From positions 1-64,000 of the forward strand of contig JYFJ02001475.1 in assembly GCA_000934665.2 (NCBI GenBank): 64,000 bases of DNA. The letters run 5' to 3'. Position 1 is the first letter of the stretch. Every line of letters starts with the position of its first letter. The DNA comes from Catajapyx aquilonaris. Lineage: Eukaryota. Made by a program: the position numbers and the translations under genes. Below the pieces are notes generated by a model. It was not told the DNA's origin. It did no database searches and worked only from the letters and a program-made list of their open reading frames with translations. This document shows positions 3,395-26,020 of the stretch, one piece after another.

Positions 3395-4911
3395 TCACCT
3401 CATGTGAGTTTCAAAATGCTTCCGGAAATTGCCACGTTGAGTAAATGATTTCTGGCAGACGTCACACATATATGGTTTCTCACCAGTATGTGTTTTTCTA
3501 TGCTCAATTAAACCGCCAGCTGCAGCAAATGACCTCTGGCAATACTCGCAAGTGTAGGGTTTCTCACCTGTATGGGTCCTCCTGTGACGTCTTAGACAAG
3601 CACGTTCAGCAAAGGACTTCTGGCAGTACTCGCAAATATAGGGTCTCTCACCTGTATGCTTTCTCTTGTGACTGATTAACATTGCTTTACGAACGAATGA
3701 CTTCTGGCAATGCTCGCAAGCATATGGTTTCTCACCAGTATGCATTCTCTTATGATGCTTTAGGGCAGTAATTGCTTTAAAAGGTTTCTGGCAATATTCA
3801 CAAATTAGTGACATCCCATTAGTGTGCATTTGCATATGTCTTTCCAAGGCTGCATAAAAGTGGAAAGATTTGTGACACGCATGGCAAGGAAATGGCTTCG
3901 GGTGTGTTCTAGTGTGCTCATCCCGGCATCTGCATGTGACAAATGATTTCTCACAAAGGAGACAAATATATGGCCCCACATCACCAACCGATGACTTTCT
4001 TGTTTCACATGACTCAGCTGTTCCTAGTGAATCTTCAGTTTTTTCAGGCATGGTGACCACAACAGCTTCTTTCATTGGCTCTTTCTGTGCTGCAGGACGG
4101 TGAAGTTTTCTGAAGGTAAAAAAGTTTTTGTGTCTTGGAATTGCCAGAGTACATTTCTTTACTGTATGCATGGTGTTCTTTTTGCTACCTTGGCATAGTT
4201 CATTACAGCTGAACAGCTCTCTTACACATACAGTATGTAAAGAAACTTTCATTTACAGGAAATGGAATGTCAGAAATAGTTAGTGGTATACTACGCTGCT
4301 ACTTTGAAGCAGTTCGTTTTGAGCAGTTCTTTCCAGTTAGTGGCTATCAATAATTTTTGTGGCTTAGTGTGGCATGTAAGTTACCTTGTTCCATCTGGCG
4401 AAAGAGAAGATCATGTGTGGAGGAGTAATTTTGGAAACATTTATACTACTTACTCCCAAAACTCAAATGATAAATGTTGGAAAACCACACTGTGTGGCAT
4501 AGTGAACAGTACTGTTACGCATTCTAGTTTATGAACAAAATCAAAACTGAATAGAAGATATGCAATGTAAGGACATGAAGTTTTGGTTAGCTGGCTTCCT
4601 ATACATTAATTTTCACTCGCATACCTATTAAATGCAGACCGAATGGACTCCCAGCATAATTTCCCAGGGGATGAAACTATGCTGTCATTGTCTGTGGGGT
4701 ATTGCGGATGTGCCGCCAGTCCTTGCTCCCGTGCAGCCACTTCCTTAAGCAAATCCTCAATTCCTGATCCTTCCAACACTTCTGGAGTCTCCTGCTTAAT
4801 CTGCATCAGCCATGGCTCTTCAGTCGTAATGCTATCGTTGTCATCATCAATTTCTTCCTTCACTACTACTTGCAAATCAGCTTCTTCCTTCACTCCCATT
4901 TGGAAAGCCAT
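3395..4911 (-). CDS. C2H2 zinc-finger protein (ZF gene 2), exons 4911-4625 and 4109-3395, ~333 aa, 7 fingers
   Basis: Donor AATAG|GTATGC (4625) and acceptor TTCAG|A (4109), both phase 2. Seven CxxC...HxxxH units, the last four preceded by canonical HTGE[K/R]PY linkers. Confidence 0.9.
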
Positions 4912-6427: not shown

Positions 6428-7198
6428 CTAATCAGTATGTGTTTTCTCATGTGAAATCAATGATGCTTGTTTCCTAAAAGTCTTTTGGCAAATTTCACAT
6501 GTGTAAAGTTTCTCGCCATCATGAGAACTTTCATGCAAAGCCAACTCGTCCTTGGCGCACGCCTTGTAGCAAATTTTACAGAAATAAGCCTTGTGACACA
6601 CCTTCCGTCTCTTATGCTGCGTGAAACTCCAAAGAGTCTTAAATGAGTTTTTGCATACATCACATATAAATGTTTTTGCGGTTTTGCTTATTGCAGAATG
6701 AGAATTACAAGGGGGGGATGCCCTAGCTTCACTGGGTGCACCATGCGGATCCGAAACCTTATCACTGGCAGTCACCAGTGACTTCTGATGAGAATCATTG
6801 CAAGGCTTAGCTTTAAGACATTCGAACCTCTTATGCTTTCTCAATATCCATAAATCACTAAATGACATGTGGCACGTGTAACACATAAACTTATTAGCTG
6901 CTGCTGCTGAATTGGAAGGTGCCTTGATAATCGCACAGGTAGAGTTTCCTTCCGCATTGGACGCCCCTCGGGATAACCCAAGCGGATCTACCTCGTCAGC
7001 GACAACCGGCACTGCCACTACCATTTCTTCTTCGGCTGGTTCCAACCCCACATCTTCATTAGCTGGCTCCAACTTCACATTATGAGTACCTTCCTTGGTC
7101 ATTACATCATTATCCACTACAAGTGAAGTCTCTTGTTGCGACTGTTGCATGTCCTCTGCGCAATCTTCCGCTTCCGCTTTAACGGCTATTCTGGACAT
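6428..7198 (-). CDS. C2H2/C2HC zinc-finger protein (ZF gene 3), 256 aa, 4 fingers
   Basis: ORF with CYTC..H...C, CDVC..H....C, CKIC..H...H and CEIC..H...H. Acceptor TTTTACAG lies 4 nt upstream of the ATG; a 5' UTR exon donor AAG|GTGAGC is at ~7283. Confidence 0.88.
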   Translation of the reverse strand: MSRIAVKAEAEDCAEDMQQSQQETSLVVDNDVMTKEGTHNVKLEPANEDVGLEPAEEEMVVAVPVVADEVDPLGLSRGASNAEGNSTCAIIKAPSNSAAAANKFMCYTCHMSFSDLWILRKHKRFECLKAKPCNDSHQKSLVTASDKVSDPHGAPSEARASPPCNSHSAISKTAKTFICDVCKNSFKTLWSFTQHKRRKVCHKAYFCKICYKACAKDELALHESSHDGEKLYTCEICQKTFRKQASLISHEKTHTD

Positions 7199-8728
7199 AG
7201 TTCTGTAAAATGATCATGTAACACTTGTAGGTAGATTCCATCCAACAATCTGAAGCTAGCAACACAATTAGGAGTGTGCTCACCTTATGAGACAGCCTTT
7301 GACGCTTTTGAGACACCTTCACCATCAGTTGCTCCTGTGCTCCGTTGTATTCTCCAGTTCCTTCGCCTCTTCCAGAATGTGGAGGTGTTCTGTATGCGAT
7401 CCAAGCCAATTCAGGCCAAATCGCAATGAACTGGAGTTAATTTCCAGACCGCTTCAGACAAATCAATCAAGCAGCAGAACTGCAGAAGCCACCATGATGA
7501 ATCCAGGTCTCATTCGTGCTCTTGCCCTGGAAAGTATCGCACATCGATTATTTGCCTCACTCACTCTTATTTATTTTATTTACTTACATTATCTTAACAC
7601 CACTGGAAAGTACCTCGTGTTTCATAATTAGGGCTACATTGATGTCAGTAAAAAATATGTCATAATTAATATGGCAACTCTGGGCTAATTCCCGCTAGAT
7701 GTCAGATAAAGCAAGAGGATCGTATAGGCTTGTACTGTATTTTTAAATATTAATATTCCCTGACGATGACGATGATAATGATGATGAAGACAGTAGCAGC
7801 AACAACAACAATAATGCCCCATATTATTATGACAAAATAATACAGCACGACTCATTATTGTTTTATACTTTGCTATTATTATAGTTTTATGGTACTACAA
7901 AAAAATTTACTGTCACTTTGACTACAAAACATATTACACATATTACAGGTCTCGCATGTTACATGTGCGACAGAATGAACATTTTTCATGTGCGCACGTA
8001 ATTGACTGTACCCATAAAATGTACTTGGGCAGAGTTCGCACTGGAAAGGGTCTCTCGTCCGCTCTCACATGTGTGGATCCAGGCGTGGCAAATTACATGA
8101 CTTCGTACGTAAAACTCCTTGTTGCACTAATGGCATGCAAATGTGTTCTCGTCTTATGTTTCAATGCAGCACTGGGGTCGACAAAAGTGTTTTTGGCTCA
8201 TAACGCAATATGTTTCACTAGGTCAGAATTATTAGAAAATGCTGGCTTTTAGCTGATGTCACACAAGTAATAAGGTTTCTTATTGCCAGTATGTGCTCAT
8301 TGTCCCTTGTGCCTAGCAACAAATTACTTTTGACATACGTACATCACACATCAAAGGCTTTTTGCCAGCATGCATCTTTTTATGTATGTTCAGGTTGCTT
8401 GAAGTTCTAATATTATGGCTCACCACACACTGTATATCACAGACGAAATTTTTAATCACAGCTGATAAGTGATAATGTTTTGATTGTCAATCGAGGAACT
8501 GGCAGGATCAGCACTGTACTCATTGCATTCACAGGCGGAAATCACCTCAAAGGGCTCTGCGCAATAATAGTATGCTCTTCCATAACATGGCTTAACTAAC
8601 ACTATTGCCGTCTCTTTCTTCTGAGTCCATTTCAGCTGGTTTAACCAGGGATTAAAATCCCTGGTTTAACTTTGATGCTCGGTGCTGCATTTTCCATTTC
8701 AGGCTCCTCATCCAATAACAAGAGAACC

Positions 8729-10606
8729 CAGGGCCGGATTAAGGGCAGGGCCCAAGGGGCCCGGGCCCTGGGCCACCCACCAAGAGGGGGCCTCCCACCA
8801 ATATAGGCAATAATATTTTTCTCTATGTGCAAGCATATAAACAGATATCAAGCAAATTTAGCTTTTTTAGCCATATGAAAGAACTGTCTTCAGACGAGCT
8901 TCAGGCCGCAGCAAAGCAGCTCCTCAGGTCTTATCCAGATGTCTTGGACATTACATTTATTGATGAACTGTGTCAGTTTGTAACATTTGCCAATATCTTC
9001 ACAGACGAGGAGCCAAAAGATATCAGCACTAAGCTTTTCCTGTACAGACTTATCATAGACAAGGGTGTTAGTCCGGGCCCTAAGCGTCTTAACCTTGCAT
9101 TTTGGGATAAGAATGTGCCACTTGGCACATATGTTCCTTAGGCCTATAGGAGCAATTCCAGAGTTGCAGGCAACTGATCGGCCCCTTAGGTCACGAGTTA
9201 TGCGGTGTTGCCAACATGGCCGGGGATGACCTGAGCGTTTTTAACGTTGCATTTTGTGATAAGAAGGTACCGCTTGGCACATATGTTCCCTAGGTCTGTA
9301 GGAGTCGTTTGAGAGATGGCGGCCCTTGATCGGCTCCTTAGGTCAGGAGTTATGCGGTGTTGCCAACCTGGTCCTGGACATAAGCGTTTTGAACCATTTT
9401 TAACTTTGCATTTTGGGATTTTGGCAAGCATGTTCCCCAGGCCTAGAGGTTCCATTCGAGAGTTGGTGGCACCTGATCTGCCCCTTAGATCACGAGTTAT
9501 GCGGTTATGCTTAGGTTCCGGACCAGGTTGGCAACACCGCATAACTCCTGACCTAAGGAGCGGATCAAGTGCCGCCATCTCTCAAATGGATCCTATACAC
9601 CTAGAGAACATGTCTGCCAAGTGGCACCTTCTCATCACAAAGTGCCGAGTTAAAACGCTTAGTTCCCTGATCAGGTTGGCAACACCGCATAACTCGTGAC
9701 CTAAGGGACCGATCAGTTGCCTGCAACTCTGAAATTGCTCCTATAGGCCCAAGGAACATATGTGCCAAGTGGCACCTTCTTATCCCAAAATGCAAAGATA
9801 AAAATGGTACAAAACGCTTAGGTCCAGGACCAGGTTGGCAACACCGCATAACTCCTGACCTAAGGAGCCGATCAAGGGCCTCCATCTCTAAAACGACTCC
9901 TACAAACCTAGGGAACATATGTGCCAAGCGGTACCTTCTTATCACAAAATGCAACGTTAAAAACGCTCAGGTCATCCCCGGCCATGTTGGCAACACCGCA
10001 TAACTCGTGACCTAAGGGGCCGATCAGTTGCCTGCAACTCTGGAATTGCTCCTGTAGGCCTAAGGAACATATGTGCCAAGTGGCACCTTCTTATCCCAAA
10101 ATGCAAGGTTAGGCCTGATTTTTGCGCATAGGGCCCGGACTATGTGCAGGACACTTTCCCAAACGTTGAGACAGCTCTACGTATATACCTTATTTTGATG
10201 GTATCAAACTGTAGTGGCGAGCGCTCCTTCTCAAAACTCAAATTAATTGAGAACCGATTACGGACATCCATGAAGCAGGAACGTTAGGTAAATCTGGCTA
10301 TCATGAGCATCGAGTCAGATATACTGCGTGAATTGGACTTCAGTGACATCATCAGCGACTTTGCCGCATGAAAATCGAGAAAAGTGTCTAGAGTCTCTGG
10401 ACTGTAGTGGTTATAACTCCATCCATTCTCTGACTTAAATTCAATTATTTTAACTTAATTTGGTTCCTCGAGTTATAGAACTTAATTTGGTAAGAACACC
10501 TGTTCATTATTTTCATTTCGACATATTCCCCNCCCCCCCCCCGAAACTATGGGCCTCCCACCACCAAAATGGGCCCCGGGCCACCCACATCCTTAATCCG
10601 GCGCCG
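8729..10606 (+). mobile_element. non-autonomous hAT DNA transposon with decayed C-terminal transposase (hAT dimerisation domain)
   Basis: TIRs CAGGGCCGGATTAAG / CTTAATCCGGCGCCG. 8-bp TSD AGAGAACC at 8721-8728 and 10607-10614. Transposase remnant ...LIIDKGV|QDTFPNVETALRIYLILMVSNCSGERSFSKLKLIENRLRTSMKQER*VNLAIMSIE with in-frame stops. Confidence 0.93.
9069..10142. mobile_element. foldback non-autonomous DNA element nested in the hAT transposase (TAG termini, 3-bp TSD; Academ-like)
   Basis: TIRs TAGTCCGGGCCCTAaGCG / CGCaTAGGGCCCGGACTA. TSD TGT at 9066-9068 and 10143-10145; its removal restores K-G-V-Q-D. Arms are long inverted repeats built from ~150-bp subunits containing TTATGCGGTGTTGCCAAC. 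The superfamily assignment is inference. Confidence 0.85.
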
Positions 10607-11132: not shown

Positions 11133-11623
11133 TTATTTTCATGACACAATTTGTATTCTGTATTCTGCTAAACCAGCAGCCGCATCAGTCCAAATGGAGA
11201 TTACGGGGTCATTGAGAATTGCACTACAGAAACACTATGGTATCAATCCTCTCAGCATATTATTGCTCCCCATTAATTTTTGCGATCTAATTTGTGAACG
11301 TCAACGCAATTCAAATTTAAAAAACCCAAACGGATGTTCGATTAATCGGACGCCATCTTGGGGGGGAGGGGGGGGGGCTCATTCCGGTGGCTGGCATGAT
11401 GACGGTAGTGCGAATATACGGTAGGCTTGCACGAGACGCGATCGAGACGCGGTCCAATCGCGACCGGGACGCGATCGAGACGCGATTATGTCTGGTTTCG
11501 ATTCTGAACGCGCTCGATATGGTCCCGATTTAAACGCGTCTCGACCCAGTTTCGACCGCGTCTCGACCGCGTCCGAGACGCATGCGCCTGTTGGCACCCG
11601 TGTCTCTAGACGACGGGGAAAAG

Positions 11624-13118
11624 ATGGCGGAGGTGCGGGATGGCGAGAGTCGAGGGATGACCTGGAGCTACACCGAGTCCAAGGCTCTGATAGGCATCTG
11701 GGCGCAGGAGGAGATGCAGATGCAGCTGGAGGCTGCGGGGCTGAAGAACAGCACGGTGTGGGCCAAGATCTCGAACATGCTGGTGGAGATGGGCTTCCAG
11801 AAGAGGGGCTGGAAGCAGGCCAGGGAGAAGGTGAGACGACTGAAGAACAACTACAAGGCTGTCAGGAAGATGAACTCCATGGGATGCGGGGAGGCCAAGA
11901 CGTGTCCCTTCTACCCCCAGCTGGATGCTGTCATGGGAAACAAGCTGTCCATGAACACCCCGAATCTCATCCAAGGTGCAAGCCTTAACGACTCAGGTGT
12001 GTAAGCCATGCACCTTACGTAACTGGCAAATTACCACTACGTTACGCTGAGTTGACGTGTCCACTGTGCCTTTGCGTAACGATCATTGTCGTTAGCGGGC
12101 AACGTAACAAGTACATAACATGGCGGATCCTTATCACTGTGATCTAAAGACAGACAATGTTGCCTCTGTGCACCCAACTCAGCGTAACAAAATCATCATC
12201 ATCTTTCACAGCATGTCCCAAAATAATATTGGGTCCAGCGAATAATGAGGTCGTCATGCATTATTATTCTGCGTAATAATATCGGTAATGTCAATCTGAA
12301 TTTACAGATGCGGAAGAAGGAGTTGGTCCCCACTGCCTTCCTGTGGAAACGTATTACGACAAGGATGCGGCAGGTAATGACAGTACTTACGACCTAAATT
12401 ATGGTCACATTTGAGTTCATAATGACCATACACTGTTCCATAGATTATTAACAATTCACCGTTTCATTTCAGATGGTGACAGTGTCGGGGAACATAATGC
12501 AGAGAATCCGCTTGATATGTCTATGAACATGGAGGAGGAACATGCAAGTACATCTAGCGTGGAGGAGAGCATGCACCATGCAGATACGTCCAGTGCAAGA
12601 GAGTCAAATGGCAGTGAAATAGGTGCAGCTCATAATATCCAGGCAGCACCACGGGAAGGTAATTAGTTGCTTGAACGGCCCAAAGAAACATTGCAGAGAT
12701 TACACTTCCATTAGCTACTACCAAGCCGCCCATGACTCAATACATTACAGCAAGAAGCGTACTTTTAAAAAATCCTGCAAGGTTCCCATGGGCCAATTTC
12801 TAGGGGCAATTACATGGATAGTATTATTAACTATTTTACTCTCTCATAGTTGGAAGTCGGGCTAATAAGTCATATCGCAAGTTGGAAGCTGCCTTGAAGG
12901 TTACCGTGGACAAGTTTCTGCAGCATCAGGAGCGGCTTGAGAATGCGTTCATGACGCATGAGAAGGAGATGCTGAAGGCGGAGCTGGAAATGGAGGAGGC
13001 CAGAAGGCGTGAGGAGAGAGAGTGGAGGGAAAGGCAGGAGGCGAGAGAAGATCAAAGGCGAGCTGAAGAGAGAGCTCATGAGCTCAAAATCCTGGAGCTC
13101 CTTGCATCCAAAAAATAA
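11624..13118 (+). CDS. Myb/SANT-like (trihelix, MSANTD-type) DNA-binding protein with C-terminal coiled coil; Harbinger ORF2-like; exons 11624-11996, 12308-12373, 12473-12658, 12850-13118; ~297 aa
   Basis: N-terminus WSYTESKALIGIW...VWAKISNMLVEMGFQKRGWKQAREKVRRLKNNY...CPFYPQLDAVMG is a typical Myb_DNA-bind_4 pattern. Three phase-1 GT-AG introns give one open frame ending in an E/R-rich coiled coil (ERAHELKILELL). Confidence 0.88.
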
Positions 13119-13519
13119 TCTTACAAAATGTTCTTTTGTAATATATGCATGCTTCCAGAGCTTTATAATTTGTCATTGTTATGACAGCGAAGAAGAAAAA
13201 CTGAACTTTTGTGATACACTTCTCTTATTTGTCTCTATGAGGTTGGAAGAGAAGGATACGTTAGTGCTTTTTCTTTTTGAGATTCTTCATTTTTGCAATA
13301 AACTGTTATGCAAAGTATCAAGCCTTCAATTTTGACAAACAATGCATAAAGTCTCACATCAATTAACATAATTAATATGAAGTGTGTGTGGATATTGGAT
13401 AATTTCAGAAGTACAGCCATTCCCAGACTTACGTACCTCTGACACGTGTAAAACATTTCCAAGGTGCTCAAAAAATCCCAGGTTCAAATTCTATTATTGC
13501 AGGTCTGTTGTTCTAGAAT

Positions 13520-14321
13520 CTAGATAGTATGACCTATAATTGCCCTAATATGTCCACAATGGATTTGCACACCTACCGGATATTTTGCAGAGTTCCTTTG
13601 CTGATCCCTACGAGATGGGTGGTGATTCTCTGTGTTTGTATCAAGTTTCCACAGGCAGATAACATTTGCAAAGATGGGTGATGTCCTTTTTTCCAATACG
13701 TCCACACAATCTCTGAAAATGGATCCTTATTAGAGAAGCGACATAGTTGTTACTTTTATCAATTCTCTCATTGCTCAGGGTTAGATCTACCAAACATACA
13801 GTATACCTCATGCTTCAGAATTGAGCTCGCATCCATTTGCATGCAAATTATTGCTTTCTGTCACTGTGCCACATGAAACATAAATCTTGAATGTCTTCAA
13901 CATTGTATGGATGAGCTCAACTTTGAAAATAGTTTTTTTTTTGTATTGGTTATTAATATATTGTAATATGCACCATGCAATCTACCGTGAAGTTTCTCAC
14001 CCTGAAATTCTCCAACAATCATTAATTGTCCAGCATCCTATGATGCGAGTCCAGAAGTGAGGATCGCTGGTCTTCATCCCCATCACTGTCCACAATGCAG
14101 ATGCCTCCAAAAATCAAGAGGGAAGTGCACAGAAAATACTGCAGCCTCGCCTGCTGCATAGCGTAAAACTTCCTGACTCTAGCTCTATGACGCTGAAGTA
14201 TGGCAGCCAAGCGACTATGCGAATCAGATGTGCATTCATCCTCCTTTAGGAGCCGAATCCTCCTGTGTTCTCTTTGTTTACGAAGGAGGTCCAGGTAGTA
14301 TAGTTGAGCATTTTCTGCCAT
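13520..14321 (-). pseudogene. decayed PIF/Harbinger transposase (HARBI1-like N-terminal half)
   Basis: Frameshifted pieces in colinear order: basic/hydrophobic N-terminus (14321-), HFWTRIIGCW..ND / LLENFRV (~14065-13990), ICLWKLDTNTE, HLVGISKGTLQNIR*VCKSIVDIL (13617-13546). These resemble the W..ENFRM ... LWRLAT..EY..I.HLFG.....V...V..VC.AI pattern of Harbinger transposases. No DDE core recognisable. Confidence 0.7.
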
Positions 14322-14640
14322 CTCAAGTCGAATGTTCCAGAAAAGACGGCATGTTTGCTGTGGAAAATGTCTGTTGCACCTCTGCCCACCAGGGAGGCAC
14401 CTCTGTCATGGAAAAATTAAAATGTGATTAGGCATATCCAATGTCTAAAAGGTAGACTCAGATGTGCGGTTCTAATCATGATTGCTACGGCCTTGCATAC
14501 ACACACCCACACTGTTCCAAGTTAATTAAAATCGCCATTGTGACATCATCTTATTGCAGATATTCACAGTACAGATGCACTACCTAACTTCGAAAGTGTT
14601 TGGTTAAAAATTAATAAATTGTTTACTAGTAATTTTTCAC

Positions 14641-15072
14641 CAGTTTGTATATTACGTTGTGCTGTACTCGTGTACTGGCAGCAAATGACTTCTGATGGAA
14701 GTCATGCAAGAAATGCCAATCTCGGCATACACGTACCTTTTTATGCCTCTTCCGCTTCCTATAATGCCCAGACGCTGCAGGGCATAAATCGTAGGTTTCA
14801 TCGCAGTGTGGCACCGTCTGGTTGCCAATTGATGAACACGCAGGTGGCGCACGTCCATTGCATTCTTTGCCCTTTTCTTTCGAATGCTGCGCCTCAGAAG
14901 GGTCATCACAATCTTGAGTCATCTGGTCCACTTCCACTGGTACCATGTCGACACTTGGACCCACTCGATCCATTTCCGTCTCCTCATCTTGTTGTGTTTG
15001 AACCATCCATGACTGTCGCACAGGGATGTATTGCTCTCTTCCTACCACTTCCTCCACTGCCGCAAGAGACAT
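14641..15072 (-). CDS. possible coding exon of unknown product (144 codons), can splice in frame to the 14402-14022 ORF
   Basis: Acceptor CCACAG| just upstream of the ATG, donor CTG|GTGAAA at 14641 (phase 0), in-frame acceptors at 14403 and 14358. Promoter-like motif at 15312-15335. No recognised domain. Confidence 0.35.
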
Positions 15073-15958
15073 TCTTCTGTGGAATATTAAAAATAGTTAA
15101 ATAATAATCAGAAACCACTCTGTCTGACAATGTCCTGGGCATGCCATTTCCTGGTGGTTCACTGGTGTCTTGTACATATTCTAGCTTACCTATAGAGTAA
15201 CGACGTGCTCACGGTTTTCTGCCTATCTGACGCTGTAATAATTGATGCTGTAGCTCGTAAATCCTGTTACTTTCATATGAAATAAAGCGTGTGAAAATGC
15301 CGACAGCTGGACGCCATTTTGAAGTCGCATTCCGACGCCTGTTCCTTAAATGCAAGAACAACTTAAATGGCGGCCAATTTGAAGCTTGAAATAATACTTT
15401 TTCTAGCTGTCACTTTCGTCCAAAATGGCCAAAATCCAAATTATTTATCATTTTGTATTTCAAATCATCAATTACAAACACTGTGGCCGTAAATATGAGC
15501 AATACTCACTGATACAGAAATATTCAGTCACATTCTTATTTGACATGTAATGTACCATATTTGACATCATATAAAGATGCAATATACCCCCCAAAAAATC
15601 GTCCTGCATCTTATACGATAATACACTAAAAACTTCATTTTTTCCTGAATATGATCTGCAGAAATGGGGATGCTTCTTATATGCGATCAAACATGGTAAA
15701 TGGTACTGCCCGTTTCCGGATCACTGGCGTCAGCATGTCCCTTTTGGATCTGAAGAGATGAGCAGGATGGACACTCAAAGTGAGCATACATGGCCATCAC
15801 TTTGGCAGGGTGGATCACCCAAGTACAAGATTGCGGTAAGATACGAGTGCAATAGGCTCATTATACACGACAGTTAAAAAGGATTTAATTGGTCAAAAAA
15901 AAATGCAACACAAGACAATATATTTATGAAAGCAACCGTAATGTCCCAAATTTTCACT

Positions 15959-19600
<3,642 letters not shown>

Positions 19601-20104
19601 TTTCACTGGATTTCCTCGACAGAATTTTCTTCAGCAGAGAACCTCCGGTCGGCCATCACCCGTCAGCAGGGTTGCCAGATGAGGACGCTCATCCGCAGAT
19701 ATCGCACTACTATTAAATAATACTATTATAATATAACACTACAATAATACTTTATTATTATAAAAGAGTAGTCATATATTTATAGGATCAATGTGCGTTG
19801 CCAGATGCAGCAATTTGCAGAGCCATCTGGCGGCCGATTATCCCGCCACTTTTCAAATAGGAAAATGAGCCATTTATGCAACAAGCGCTTGCTTTTTTTT
19901 TGCAAATATTATTCAACACAGAAGCATAAATAGGAGTGTGTGTCCCGCTTGTTTTGGAGTGTTCATACAGCTGATTTTTTCCTTACCACAAAAGAGGCTC
20001 GCGTTTTTTGGGGCGGGTGTCTGCTCAGCACAAAAAAAAAAGCGGCTGCGTGAATGGTCCGGCAACTTCAAAGCGCCGCCGCTGCTTCTTTTCTGCAGCT
20101 AAAA

Positions 20105-21367
20105 ATGGCGTTGAGTAAGAAGGCTTTTGCTGAGGCTAAGACCAAAGAGAAGTTTTACAGGAAGGAGAGGCTCATACAGGAGGTGCAGACCAGGCCGGCA
20201 TTGTGGGACAAGAGTCGGAGGGACCACAGGGTGAGGGAAGTCCTCAACGCGCAGTGGCAGGAGGTGGCAGATGCAATGGGAAGTACATGTAAGTACGTGC
20301 CACATACCGTATACCGGAGTAACTGTAGCAAGTACGCCTTGTAATAAACAAGGGGTTAGTCACTTATGAAGTCCTTTGTACACTGCGCCCGAAGTCCGGT
20401 TGAATTCCAAGTAAAGTCGGTAAAGCCCATTGAAGTGAATAATCCGTCAAAAATAATTCAGTATGACATGTTGGTTAATTGCAGCGACTGAAGTACGAGT
20501 GACGTGGAAGAGCCTGTTGGACTACTTCTGCAATGTGCATTATACTGCGACTCACATGCGTAATGAGGTTAAGTGGGCACACTATGAGTCGATGATATTC
20601 ATGCGGGATCAGGTGGAGATGAGGAACAGAACGTGAGTCAATGCGTACTGTAATTGTCAGGTAATTTTAATAACTGAAGTTGTGGTTCACTTTCAGGTCA
20701 AGAGGAAATGGAGTGTCGGATGATTCTAATGACATGCTGTATGTGGAGATTAACCCGGGTTCGCAGATGAATGAGACTCAACCAGCGTCGCCCCCAAGCA
20801 TTGATCCCACGACCCAGCAACTTTACATGCCGGCGGATCCACACTCGTCTGCTGAACCTGCCTCGATTACGCCAGATCTGATTGTCACAAAGTCTGAAGT
20901 GCCACCCAACGACGCATGTGATGAAGACTCAACAGATGCATCAGTTGCCCCAGAACCGACTCCAAAACCCCAGACTGACACTACATCGGCAGCACCTGGC
21001 ATGGGAAAAACCAGGAGGCCTAGCAGGAGAAAGATGGAAGCAACTGACGTGATTGACGAGGAACTACAAAGTGTGGCAAAAAAGCTTAAGATCGTGGAAA
21101 GGTGAGACTTTTAATTAATTGTTTGAAGAGGTTGACCACTTGTAAACATTTCGCATTAATTGGTGACATCGTTCACTCATTTTCAGCGAATTGGAGGAGA
21201 ATTCAAGGCACCTGGAAGACAAATATCGGGGCTTCTGTAATTACATGGCAGGCCTTTTGAGAGATGATGTTCCAGAGGAGTTGAAGCATAAGTGCATACA
21301 GGACTTAATGACAGTGATACATGCGTATGTAGCCGGAAAGCGACCCAACATACATGTTCCTGATTAA
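20105..21367 (+). CDS. MADF-BESS domain protein (Harbinger ORF2-like); exons 20105-20288, 20485-20632, 20697-21101, 21187-21367; ~305 aa
   Basis: MADF: LIQEVQTRPALWDKSRRDHR...QWQEVA...WKSLLDYF...KWAHYESMIFM. C-terminal BESS-like DKYRGFCNYMAGLLRDDVPEELKHKCIQDLMTVIHAY. All introns GT-AG and phase-consistent. Confidence 0.88.
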
Positions 21368-21720
21368 CACTGCAAAAATTTATTATTGTATGGGCGCATG
21401 GCAACAAAAGATTATCTCTGTTAGGAATGCTGTACATATTGTTGAAAAAATTATGTAATTCTGCCAGTGAAATGATGTAACATGGATTCCAAATTGAAAC
21501 AGTTTAAGATTGTTGTAAATTGTTAACTTTTTCTGGTTCATCTTCAGAAAATTTGAAAAATTCAATATTGATTTTTTTTCAGTGATATTTCCAGGCTTGA
21601 CCACCATGCCCTTGCCCCTCTTGCACCTGATATTTTGTATATAAAAACAACAACACTGTAAATAAAGCCTTTTGGTTACTCGATGGCCTGAGCTACAACA
21701 CAACTTGCCTTCTTGCACTG

Positions 21721-23992
21721 TTACGTGTCCATTTTTCTGCAATCATCGTCCCACTGCCAGGGTACTTCTCCAGCGGACGAAGAAAAATAACAGGTGAAGT
21801 CCTTCCTAACATTTTGTGCAGCTGCGGTCAAATTTCTTGTCTGAATGGGTTGCAAGTTTTCCAGACCCAAAGGAGATGACACTTGCTCGTTAAAATCCTC
21901 CCGCCATTCTCCGTCCTTCACTTCCCCACTGACGTCCACATAGTCTGCATACCAATCTGGACAATACACCTTGTCGTTAATCCCTGCTTCTTCTGCCATC
22001 ATGACATTGTGCAGCACAAGGCATGCTCTGGTCACCTGCTGAATGGTGTCTGGTTTCAGTGGCAGGGGCTTGCAGAATATCTTCCACTGCTGGGCAAGAA
22101 TTCCAAAGGCATTCTCACTGCAGCGTCTGTTGGAGTACATGAATTAGCATCAAACAACTGAAACAAGAATAAATTATTCAATGAACTTTTTCAGAAGAGA
22201 CCCACCTTCACAGGATTTAAAAAGGATGGGTACAAGTAGCCTAATGTAGGCTATTTACCGATGAGCATTAAAAGTAACTATGCAAAAGTTAACTGATTAA
22301 AATAAGCTGCTTAGTGCCAAAAAAAAAATCAAGAGAAATTGGACAAGTATTTTGGATGTCTAGTCCATGTTAAAATCTCCTCTACTTTTATCTGAAGATT
22401 AACAAATAATTCAACTTAACTGGCTCGATTTAGGCGATAGTTGAAAACTTGCTCCTCTGAAGTCAAGAATTCACAGGAATATGGCTGCAGAATATTCTGT
22501 GACATCGGAAAGGCAACATCACCAATTAGGACGTATGGAGCCACTATATCAGAGCGTGGAAGAAGTGACGCTTCGGGAAAGAGGAGTGTTCCTGATTCCA
22601 CAGCCTGGCCCAGATCAGAAGCTTTGAATGCTCCATCACCACTTCTGCAGCCATAGGTGCCAATGTCCACTGTGATGAATTTGTAGTTAGCATCCACTGC
22701 GGCCATTAGCGTAACAGAATTTTGCCTCTAAAGTGATGAAATAAATTAGTACGATCTCTGCCATGCTGCATTTTGGGTGCAGGTATACCATGTAATTCCT
22801 AGTGAGGGAGCTGGAATTTTTGGGTGGGTTGATGATCACGTGTTTCCCATCTAGAGATCCACAACAGTGGGGAAATTGCCACTGCACAGCAAACTCATGG
22901 GCCAGTCTGGCCCAGTGTTTAGCCGTGACCTCCTGAAAATGTTACAATGTTACATGAAATCAAACTTTGAATGCATGCAACTAACAGTATGACCTACAGG
23001 GAGGTAGATGGGCTGCAGAACATCCCAAAGAGCTGCGGTTGTTTCTTTCACAACATTGTGCACAGTTGAAATGCCTATACAAAATTCTGTTGCCATTGCA
23101 GAATAGCCATTACCACTTGCTAGAAACCTGTGGGATTCAAGCCTATGTAATGACAACCAAAAGTGCAAGAGATTTTTAATAGTCTCAACTGCAATTAGGT
23201 TATTTTAAACTGGAATTATGTGAATTGGAGCCACTGTAACTTATCCAACTTTGCCACTATGACAATATCATATACGAACATGACATACTCAACGCATCTT
23301 CATGATACGAATGGTGAGTTTATACCGTACCTCAAAGTAATAGCGAGTCGGTGAGATGGAGACAGGGGCTCTCTAGTCATGCAAAACTTCTGCAACCTAT
23401 CGCTAAGCAGTTGTGTGAGTTTATCAAACACTGAAGGTGACATCCGCATGTTCATTCTGAAGTAGTCGGTATCCCACACTCCCTCCACCTGCATCTGGAA
23501 AGAAAATATATTTTAGGCTACATGGCAGTGTAACTATTATACATGTTGGGTTCCCACAACCACTAAAGAGACATCGGCTTATTTTGATAATATGATTAAT
23601 AGTATTGGAACCCTAACACAATAATTTTGGAAATTGTTTCCAAATTATGTCTTGCAAGGAATGTTTTTTACTTTCGTAATGGTTGTGATACCCAAGTCTG
23701 CAAAGGCTTGTAACTTTGCAACACCACAGAAGCTAACATCCCGCATGTCAAAAAACGGAAGAAATCATAATGTGCTTATTACTTGTTGATGATAGACACC
23801 AAGACTCTTTCTCCTGGAGATCTCCAAGACCCCAAACCTCTTATTACGCAGCCTTTTCTTCATCATCAGCAGCACCTCCATCCGCAAAAGGAGGCACTTC
23901 TTCCGCAACAGCAGCTGATGCAATCTTGTATGATCCACTGTCTGGCCCACTCTGTTTCCCCAAGTCCTTATAAGATGGTCACTGGAATTCAT
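21721..23992 (-). CDS. PIF/Harbinger transposase / HARBI1-like DDE nuclease; exons 23992-23783, 23494-23331, 23127-22998, 22932-22789, 22727-22420, 22126-21721; ~453 aa if the last intron is spliced (donor is TT, not GT)
   Basis: Motifs FRMNMRMS..FDKL, RLAITLRFLASG, WQFPHCCGSLDGKHV, LMAAVDANYKF, IGDVAFP, FNYRLNRARRCSENAFGIL, ACLVLHN. Four canonical introns; the fifth donor reads AG|TTAAGT. Confidence 0.88.
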
Positions 23993-24559
23993 AGGCTGTA
24001 AAAAATAAATTTGTTACAAAAATCAACGAGTGAAAACACTGTACTTTTCAATTATTGCTCTTGTACGAAACTACACGGTGACTGTCAAGTCTGGATGCAT
24101 AATGTACGGAAAACGAGAGAACGATCTAACGTCATCGTTCCTTCCATTGTTGCTTTTTGTTGACACTGTTTACTCATACTGTTTTGCGAGAGTATTTACA
24201 TGGAAACATTGATGGCATCAGATCGTTCACTCATTTTCAGTACATTAGGTAATAATAGAGTATTGTCCGTTGCCAGGACACTATTTGTCAACCAACAATG
24301 CAATATTATTACCGATGTGTCCAGACTTTATGGTCACCCTGTGCAGTGTTGCAAGGTAAATAATTTTTTGCAAATCTTCACAATGCACTCTTGCAATTAT
24401 TGTGGAGGTTGTTGATTTATGGGCAACATGAGTACCACAAGTTGTGTCATCAGCCTCAATGACATGGTTCAAGTAATATTTTTTCTGATTAAAAAAAAAT
24501 ATATATATATATATCAATGCTTGTGGAGAATATCTTGCTGCAAGATATGTTAATTATGC

Positions 24560-24786
24560 AACTTTCTATGGATGCAACCATTTTAGTAACTGCTGGCATC
24601 GTCATCGCTTCTTCCTCTGTTGGCTCCACCTTCGAGTAAGAGGCACTGCAGGATTCAGATTCCTCTGGTATGAACAATGATGGTTCCTCCTTCACATCCA
24701 CATGCAGCAGAGTTTCCTGCTTCATCCAAGTCCCTTCAACAGTCAGGTTATCTTCCAGCTCTTTCTTCACAACAGCAGAACACATG
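24560..24786 (-). pseudogene. finger-less fragment of the ZF gene family (N-terminal acidic module only)
   Basis: VVKKELEDNLTVEGTWMKQETLLHVDVKEEP...KVEPTEEEAMTMP resembles the N-termini of ZF genes 1-4. Same promoter motif at 24929-24952. No fingers found downstream. Confidence 0.55.
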
Positions 24787-25246
24787 TTGCTATAGGAGCA
24801 GGAGTACTTTAATGACACTTCTATGTGATCATGCACACTTCTCCCATTTTTTCTTACCCACTGTTGTCTCCTGTGTAGTCCATTATTAGATGTTAATTAA
24901 GAGGAAACTAAAGAGGATGAATGGCAGCGGCCATGTTGGGGGCGCATTCCGACTGATGCTGTGAATTAAACGATGGCCAATAGGCGTGGTGGTGGTATCG
25001 ACCCCGCGATATTTAAACTGAAAAATCTTTCAAGACTAAATTGCAGGTTGTGTCTTTAAGTGTGGGAAGAGTTATTAAAGTTGTATTTGTCGATGTTATG
25101 TTCAACCACCATCTACAAAGCAGGCAGTCTGATACGATGGACAAGAAAATCACCTATAAATTTGGTTGGTCAGGAATCAATTTTAGCGAAATTTCATTCA
25201 TTTAAACATTTATTGAGGGCCTATTAGTTTCATATATTTTGACAGA

Positions 25247-26020
25247 CTAGTATGATTTCTCATATTTGGGCTCTTCGTACTTGGGCTGCTCGTATCCGTA
25301 GGATGGCTTCTCATATTTCGGCTGTTCATATCCATATGACTTCTCTTCGTATTTGGGCTGCTCGTATCCGTAGGATGGCTTCTCGTACTTGGGCTGCTCG
25401 TAGCCATATGATGGCTTCTCATATTTCACCTGCTCGTAGCCGTAGGACTGCTTCTCCTCGTACTTGGGCTGCTCATATCCATATGACTGCTTCTCATACT
25501 TGGGCTGCTCGTAGCCGTAGGACTTCTCCTCGTACTTGGGCTGCTCGTATTTCGGTTGCTCGTACCCGTAGGATGGCTTCTCATACTTTGGCTGCTCATA
25601 ACCATATGATTTCTCCTCGTACTTGGGCTGCTCGTAGCCGTAGGACTTCTCCTCGTATTTAGGCTGCTCGTACCCGTAGGATGGCTTCTCGTACTTGGGC
25701 TGTTCATATCCATATGACTGCTTCTCTTCGTACTTGGGCTGCTCGTACCCGTAGGATGGCTTCTCATACTTGGGCTGCTCGTAGCCGTATGACTGCTTCT
25801 CTTCGTACTTTGGCTGCTCGTATTTCGGTTGCTCGTACCCGTAGGATGGCTTCTCATACTTCTGCTCGTAGCCGTATGAAGTGGGCGCTGGAGTCATCTC
25901 GTAGTACCCAGCATATGAAGAAGCCACAAGGGCCAGGAAGATCACAAGCAGAAGCTACAAAAGGGAGAAAATAATGAGACATATTACAACCAACCCAAAT
26001 TGCAAACTCACCTTAGCCAT
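25247..26020 (-). CDS. secreted Tyr/Glu/Lys/Pro-rich tandem-repeat protein; exons 26020-26012 and 25954-25247; 238 aa
   Basis: ATGGCTAAG|GTGAGT and TTTTGTAG|CTT (phase 0) give signal peptide MAKLLLVIFLALVASSYA. 16 copies of SYGYEQ(P)K separated by YEKP/YEEK/YEEKQ. TATA box upstream and AATAAA at 25214-25209. Confidence 0.9.

Follow-up and report, generated by a model that had tools for sequence, protein, structure and literature searches.

The window, by which we mean the whole stretch of 64,000 nucleotides at positions 1 to 64,000 of Catajapyx aquilonaris contig JYFJ02001475.1 (GenBank assembly GCA_000934665.2), is eukaryotic in sequence character, with short introns and a G+C content of about 42%. 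It holds a module of two genes, a MADF gene and a DDE_Tnp_4 transposase gene, which is a single, immobile PIF/Harbinger copy standing head-to-head with the splicing-factor gene SMU1, both genes still being open frames. An earlier interpretation made from the letters alone, here called the sequence-only reading, had placed SMU1 between two convergent gene pairs, and the right-hand pair is the module in question. The features of this part of the window are as follows.

15959..19600, minus strand: SMU1 coding region, start at about 19600, last coding exon 15962-16117 (from the PDB match to 5o9z_L, the WD40 Pfam matches and exon reading)
19601..20104, no strand: interval between the start codons of SMU1 and the MADF gene, 505 bp, head-to-head
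20105..21367, plus strand: MADF gene, 4 exons (20105-20288, 20485-20632, 20697-21101, 21187-21367 including the stop), 305 residues
21721..23881, minus strand: DDE_Tnp_4 (PIF/Harbinger) transposase gene, 6 exons (23783-23881, 23331-23494, 22998-23127, 22789-22932, 22420-22727, 21721-22126 including the stop), 416 residues with intron 5 removed

The position of SMU1 between the two pairs is borne out, as one exon matches residues 175-257 of the solved human SMU1 in a PDB search (5o9z_L, E 1.1e-57), and Pfam finds WD40 repeats in further exons. A gap of four N characters (18639-18642) lies within this gene; the window has six N in total, the others being at 10532 and 54384.

All gene models were built by eye from a three-frame reading, and over three of them (MADF, transposase and the Myb gene of the left pair) 10 of 11 introns are GT-AG, the exception being intron 5 of the transposase. 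A Pfam scan of 16 open reading frames (ORFs) assigned a family to 4 and none to the other 12. For the MADF gene, the match to MADF_DNA_bdg (E 3.4e-8) lies in the plus-strand ORF 20054-20344, and exon 1 covers positions 1-41 of the 84 in the profile; exon 2, which is expected to hold the second half of the domain, has no Pfam match when searched alone. The MADF frame is without stops and its three introns are all GT-AG.

On the minus strand, DDE_Tnp_4 is matched in two ORFs, at 22416-22727 (E 4.6e-8) and at 21721-22143 (E 9.8e-6). The 416-codon transposase model is stop-free, with four of its five introns GT-AG; it aligns end to end with relatives, and the catalytic residues D (in LDGKH), D (in LIGDVAF) and E (in CSENAFG) are all kept. 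The two genes are convergent, their facing stop codons lying 353 bp apart. The sequence-only reading had described a convergent pair of MADF-BESS (plus) and DDE transposase (minus) at 20.1-24.0 kb; the MADF domain, the DDE_Tnp_4 family and the convergence are all found, and the BESS part, for which there is no Pfam match, is not confirmed. We would rather speak of a MADF protein with an unconfirmed BESS-like tail, its C-terminal helix motif looking BESS-like by eye only.

The composition of the two genes is also different. The observed/expected ratio of CpG is 0.9-1.05 across 19.0-20.0 kb, i.e. the SMU1/MADF promoter area, and is 0.72-0.84 over the MADF gene versus 0.18-0.5 over the transposase. 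This pattern is suggestive only, and would be in keeping with methylation of the transposase DNA and with a MADF gene placed in a promoter domain that is unmethylated.

Distant relatives and the donor of transposase intron 5

With the last transposase exon as query, the protein database search gave one match among 92 candidates, a protein of 254 residues (P0001) that is 43-53% identical to the transposase. An alignment of this exon with P0001, used to scan metagenome contigs, yields 12 loci at 33-55% identity, and exons 2-6 of the transposase match all 12 of them by tblastn. On the whole, the nearest homologues are 43-55% identical in protein. Queried against the same 12 loci, the four MADF exons, the four Myb exons and two left-hand pieces gave no match at E≤0.01. 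Relatives were also absent among 54 pattern matches in viral_contigs and among 115 in genome_contigs; exon 5 found none in the nearest-relative protein search (0 of 1 candidate), and the last exon has no match in PDB.

Two of the metagenome loci carry a possible partner gene in the same position as in the window. In L009 a BESS ORF stands on the opposite strand just beyond the 3' end of the transposase (E 6.9e-6; 51 ORFs scanned), and in L002 a MADF ORF is placed likewise, with E 7.5e-4 and 20.2 bits, which is just under Pfam's cut-off of 22 bits. The partner scan of L002 and L010-L012 took in 72 of the 137 listed ORFs, omitting those over transposase matches and some short ones, and among the ORFs scanned the long loci L010-L012 show no MADF partner. 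Over its 15 C-terminal residues the MADF protein is similar to the end of the partner ORF in L002 (pairwise E 0.009), and between the last MADF exon and the L009 BESS ORF there is no BLASTP alignment. By content and layout we class the right module as a PIF/Harbinger two-gene unit, because it combines MADF with DDE_Tnp_4 and because the same convergent layout recurs in the distant relatives L002 and L009. In L009, the transposase exons are separated by about 2.5 kb in which the opposite strand holds a C2H2 zinc-finger ORF (2472-2930, minus; Pfam E 2.1e-14), and this segment is probably a nested insertion.

The one defect of the transposase gene lies at its fifth intron.

22419-22418, minus strand: intron-5 donor reading TT, not GT (cag/TTAAGT), with an in-frame TAA at 22418-22416

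All other features of the transposase are unbroken, and the single lesion is at donor position +1. A substitute donor that could be used in the required phase is not found for intron 5. Since the TT donor is followed by the in-frame TAA, the message is predicted to end at 282 residues, without the catalytic E. The last exon beyond the broken donor, 134 codons long, is still open.

That intron 5 is real and old is argued by two of the relatives, because both mark the same place. P0001 has a 30-residue in-frame insertion exactly at the intron-5 site, which may be read as a read-through intron, and in L001 the corresponding codon is interrupted by an intron of the same phase (AG/GTGACA ... cag/A). 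The comparison was made over the eight metagenome loci where both flanking exons matched. An intron is present at the same place in one of the eight (L001) and five codons upstream in four (L003, L004, L006 and L007), and the other three (L005, L008 and L009) have none near the site; all five intron-bearing loci have a GT donor. The sequence-only reading had the transposase crippled in both pairs. For the right pair this holds, resting on one TT donor; for the left pair it is not confirmed, the stump there being unverified as a transposase.

It might be argued that the TT reflects a mis-assembly or a private allele, in which case the transposase would be whole and both genes would be co-domesticated, like HARBI1 and NAIF1 or the PLG/MADF pairs of insects. 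The 416 open codons speak for this, as do the conserved motifs, including a C-terminal VPWQW common to the window transposase and P0001 at 43-44% identity, and the other four donors, which are canonical. Nevertheless the window sequence reads TT, and four DNA runs contain 94-96% of the sampled words of the stretch, these runs possibly being the assembly's own source and not independent of it. We regard a whole, co-domesticated pair as quite improbable.

Element ends, neutral decay and possible host retention

Harbinger elements are described with terminal inverted repeats (TIRs) of 25-50 bp in PMC9179366, or of about 15 bp in PMC9710019, plus a 3-bp target-site duplication (TSD). The sequence-only reading had seen neither TIR nor TSD around the two pairs, and a repeat search together with a flank scan against shuffled sequence leads to the same result. 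For the right module, the repeat search over 19300-24700 found no arm pair enclosing the genes except one 15-nt AT-rich match, and a comparison of 12-mers between the two flanks yields 30 pairs that agree at 10 or more of the 12 positions, versus 9-44 in 10 shuffles. One of these pairs has equal 3-bp flanks, versus 0-2 in the shuffles. The left pair has 39 such pairs versus 23-46 in shuffles, none with TWA, and the repeat search is likewise without enclosing arms there. At neither gene pair does any candidate arm pair have a TWA (TAA/TTA) duplication. The right module, being without TIRs and TSD, can therefore no longer move, and no second copy of it is present in the 64-kb window.

Two candidate pairs of ends were considered for the right module and rejected. 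The pair at 19746/24250 is the AT-rich match of 15 nt, whose flanks differ (AAT versus GTC). That at 19904/24368 is also AT-rich, with 10 of 12 matches and TGC flanks, and its likeness stops after 12 nt.

We then asked how a neutral copy would look, by simulating substitutions on the real coding sequences, without indels, and on TIRs of published length, at least 15 bp. The probability that the MADF and transposase frames are both open is 0.15 at 2% divergence, 0.0075 at 5% and 0.001 at 8%, and that of a 15-bp TIR pair escaping the scan is 0.004, 0.058 and 0.166 respectively; for a 25-bp TIR pair it is 0.0035 at 5%. The joint probability of open right frames and no visible ends is below 1e-3 at every divergence tried, and point decay alone therefore fails to explain open frames without ends. 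Within this simulation, the result favours selection on the frames, or a young copy with both ends deleted, or a family with unusually short ends.

The second and third of these belong to an explanation by ordinary debris, in which a fairly young Harbinger copy upstream of SMU1 has its ends deleted, rearranged or too short for the scans, decay has begun at the splice donor, nothing is kept by the host, and the Myb gene is likewise a relic or is unrelated. The sole lesion of one base, with the exon beyond it still open, is what would be expected of a young copy, and the CpG depletion of the transposase body is like that of silenced DNA. The protein searches gave no conserved orthologue, and the teleost Harbingers in PMC9179366 are low in copy number, have both ORFs and are transcribed. 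However, a copy young enough to keep 721 open codons should retain its ends, and none are found; from the joint neutral probability it follows that debris must assume two terminal deletions. Moreover, the MADF gene is far less CpG-depleted than the adjoining transposase. We consider debris possible and rather doubtful.

The reading to which we incline, tentatively and a little short of calling it probable, is that the right MADF gene is retained by the host. Selection would have kept the frames open while the termini were lost, and a lineage-specific domestication would have begun with the pair, the MADF protein being the part now kept. By analogy with ADF-1L, this protein might be a DNA-binding factor with sequence specificity, acting perhaps on its own promoter and on that of the neighbouring SMU1. 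The transposase would have been inactivated only recently.

Several observations weigh against host retention of the MADF gene. The same picture would arise from a young copy with both ends deleted or from a family with very short ends, and the pair at 19904/24368 remains a weak candidate for such ends, although the shuffles give 0-2 pairs of this kind. The protein databases, queried with the transposase exons and Myb exon 1, show no sign of conserved orthologues, P0001 being the one distant relative, in collections that seem to contain few fish proteins. In MADF exon 4, BESS has no Pfam match even at E≤10. The open last exon of the transposase indicates that the donor change is recent, or is a polymorphic allele or an assembly error. 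Lastly, PMC9710019 takes four things as signs of PIF domestication, namely that distant species have orthologues in synteny, that the gene is under purifying selection, that related copies are absent and that TIRs and TSDs have been lost; among the four it is the last that is found at the right pair.

The closest systems are in insects, where PMC9710019 describes at least four co-domestications of a transposase with a MADF gene from single insertions. These pairs (DPLG7-DPM7, APLG1-APM1, APLG2-APM2 and LPLG2-LPM2) are like the right pair in having adjacent DDE_Tnp_4 and MADF genes, introns, open frames and no TIR or TSD. They differ in what that work shows for them, i.e. synteny over 28-140 My, single copy, and a ratio of nonsynonymous to synonymous substitution (dN/dS) of 0.1-0.25. 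The right pair, for its part, differs from them by the broken splice donor of its transposase and by a promoter region common with SMU1. Judged from its genes, it may belong, as a young case, to this known kind of domesticated pair, and is not yet to be filed as a domesticated gene.

A second comparison is with ADF-1L of the teleost Miichthys miiuy, a Harbinger-derived MADF gene reported in PMC11893794 to bind and regulate in cis its own locus and the adjacent 7SL. Like the right MADF gene, it is derived from a Harbinger, lies by a host gene and is without a working transposase. Its neighbour, however, is the RNA polymerase III gene 7SL about 800 bp downstream, whereas here SMU1 is head-to-head. 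The autonomous Harbingers of teleosts (PMC9179366) have a DDE transposase and a Myb/SANT-like gene, and are like the right pair in having two genes; they differ by their TIRs and 3-bp duplications, of which none are found here. If the right MADF gene proves to be conserved and expressed, the locus would show a Harbinger pair shortly after its transposase was lost; if it is a relic only, it is ordinary, Harbinger copies with both genes being a normal component of fish genomes at low copy number.

HARBI1 and NAIF1 of vertebrates, which are unlinked, are further from our case. According to PMC9710019, a Harbinger transposase and its Myb-like partner have here both been retained by the host, the transposase depending on the partner for its entry into the nucleus. 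They are ancient, from teleosts to mammals, and HARBI1 is whole, whereas the window has an adjacent convergent pair with a MADF-type partner and a splice-truncated transposase. The same source describes ALP1/ALP2 and HDP1/HDP2 of Arabidopsis, in which a Harbinger transposase and a Myb partner are reused as chromatin factors; these differ in being plant genes with demonstrated complexes (PMC9710019).

Were the host retention true, it would bear on the published model by which the PIF genes of one insertion are at first domesticated together and may separate afterwards, and would add an example of a MADF protein of transposon origin in a position to act on the host gene beside it. A literature search found no paper treating SMU1 together with Harbinger, and we know of no printed description of this locus.

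The Myb gene and the surrounding neighbourhood

On the other side of SMU1 lie the features that the sequence-only reading had taken as a second module.

11426..11582, no strand: array of the 11-bp repeat CGAGACGCGAT, 5 direct copies (11432-11486) facing 3.5 inverted copies (11535-11573)
11624..13118, plus strand: Myb_DNA-bind_4 gene, 4 exons (11624-11996, 12308-12373, 12473-12658, 12850-13118 including the stop), 297 residues
13523..14405, minus strand: supposed 'decayed transposase', putative, a 99-codon ORF (14025-14321) and pieces ridden with stops and frameshifts (13523-13749)

The Myb gene is well founded. Pfam matches Myb_DNA-bind_4 in 11534-12004 (E 3.5e-16), and the nearest Atlas clusters are also Myb_DNA-bind_4, with a score of 0.92. 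Its three introns are all GT-AG and all in phase 1, and its 297 codons are open; the earlier claim that the DNA-binding gene is intact in both pairs is thus sustained, both this gene and the 305-residue MADF gene being stop-free with GT-AG introns. The last exon is rich in glutamate and arginine and looks coiled-coil-like by eye. A CpG island (observed/expected 1.14-1.35, G+C 0.56-0.58) forms the 5' end of the gene. In protein databases, Myb exon 1 found no relative among 58 candidates.

The CGAGACGCGAT array stands 40-190 bp upstream of the Myb start, within the stretch that resembles a CpG island. When the 9-mer CGAGACGCG is searched with at most one mismatch, seven of the nine matches in the window fall in the array, versus 2.3 expected in the whole window. 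The spacing of the repeats, one helical turn, suggests a predicted protein-binding array, which could be a promoter element or could be leftover subterminal repeats of a transposon. No matching array is found on the far side of the left pair.

For the supposed transposase, all tests turned out negative. The left stump has no Pfam family even at E≤10 and no DDE domain in any frame, and tblastx gives nothing below E 0.1. With phmmer against 1.84 billion representatives, the left ORF has one match, a spurious one of 27 residues to a repeat protein, and its best Atlas score is 0.76, unrecognised. Single-frame local alignment of the stump to the six right transposase exons gives p 0.19-0.88, and in an alignment tolerant of frameshifts and jumps to the right transposase and L005, 163, 193 and 36 of 200 shuffles are equal or better for the three queries. 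By eye, the minus-strand pieces at 13.5-14.0 kb would be reminiscent of N-terminal motifs of PIF/Harbinger transposases, and this likeness is the one positive point for the identification. Of the convergent pair of Myb/SANT (plus) and decayed transposase (minus) that had been proposed at 11.6-14.3 kb, the Myb gene is therefore confirmed and the transposase is not, being negative in Pfam, Atlas and alignments.

These results bear on the possibility of a second Harbinger module on the left, belonging to an unrelated family, whose transposase is an N-terminal stump with the DDE part deleted and whose Myb gene was kept by the host, such that two independent partner-only domestications bracket SMU1. 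In favour of it, the Myb gene is unbroken and begins in a CpG island, Myb and the left pieces would be convergent as in the right pair, and, if the neighbour is indeed a relic of the age it seems to have, an open Myb frame of 297 codons has a probability of 0.0085 at 15% divergence. Against it stand all the negative stump tests and the lack of a TIR or TSD at the left pair. Furthermore, only about 400 bp lie between the left pieces and the Myb stop, and the whole DDE domain would therefore need to be deleted. We judge such a second domestication unlikely. The proposal of two Harbinger modules at two stages of one co-option, plausible for the right module, is not supported for the left one, and what is left is one module and a Myb gene. 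The latter appears as an ordinary Myb/SANT gene, whose link to a local Harbinger insertion is unproven.

A still wider proposal can be made, in which the host took over both DNA-binding genes as regulators, independently and each from its own, unrelated Harbinger insertion at one side of SMU1, the partner of one just disabled and that of the other a stump. The two would act in cis on their own CpG-rich promoters and on SMU1, and the CGAGACGCGAT arrays would be retained subterminal binding sites. We hold this to be very improbable.

Between the 3' end of SMU1 and the left stump lies a 156-codon open frame at 14629-15096 (minus), which is acidic, has a KRKRHKK cluster and is without a Pfam match; it may represent another exon of the stump's ancestor, or noise. 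C2H2 zinc-finger arrays are found in three minus-strand ORFs (342-1124, 3398-4252 and 6431-7213; Pfam E down to 2.7e-35). Just past the 5' end of the transposase gene, at 24100-24247, there is a local hairpin resembling a miniature inverted-repeat transposable element, with two 48-nt arms that are 79% complementary and 52 nt between them. Directly right of the transposase stands an acidic minus-strand ORF at 24489-24896, which by its look we take to be the N-terminal part of a fish-type zinc-finger gene. The pairs therefore sit within a zinc-finger gene neighbourhood. Further right, a 235-codon open frame at 25247-25954 (minus) consists of tandem repeats of about 12 residues of the SYGYEQPKYEEK type (TRF periods 36, 72 and 270, score up to 869). 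No Pfam family is found for it; its N-terminus is hydrophobic and signal-peptide-like, and the product is probably a secreted tyrosine-rich repeat protein.

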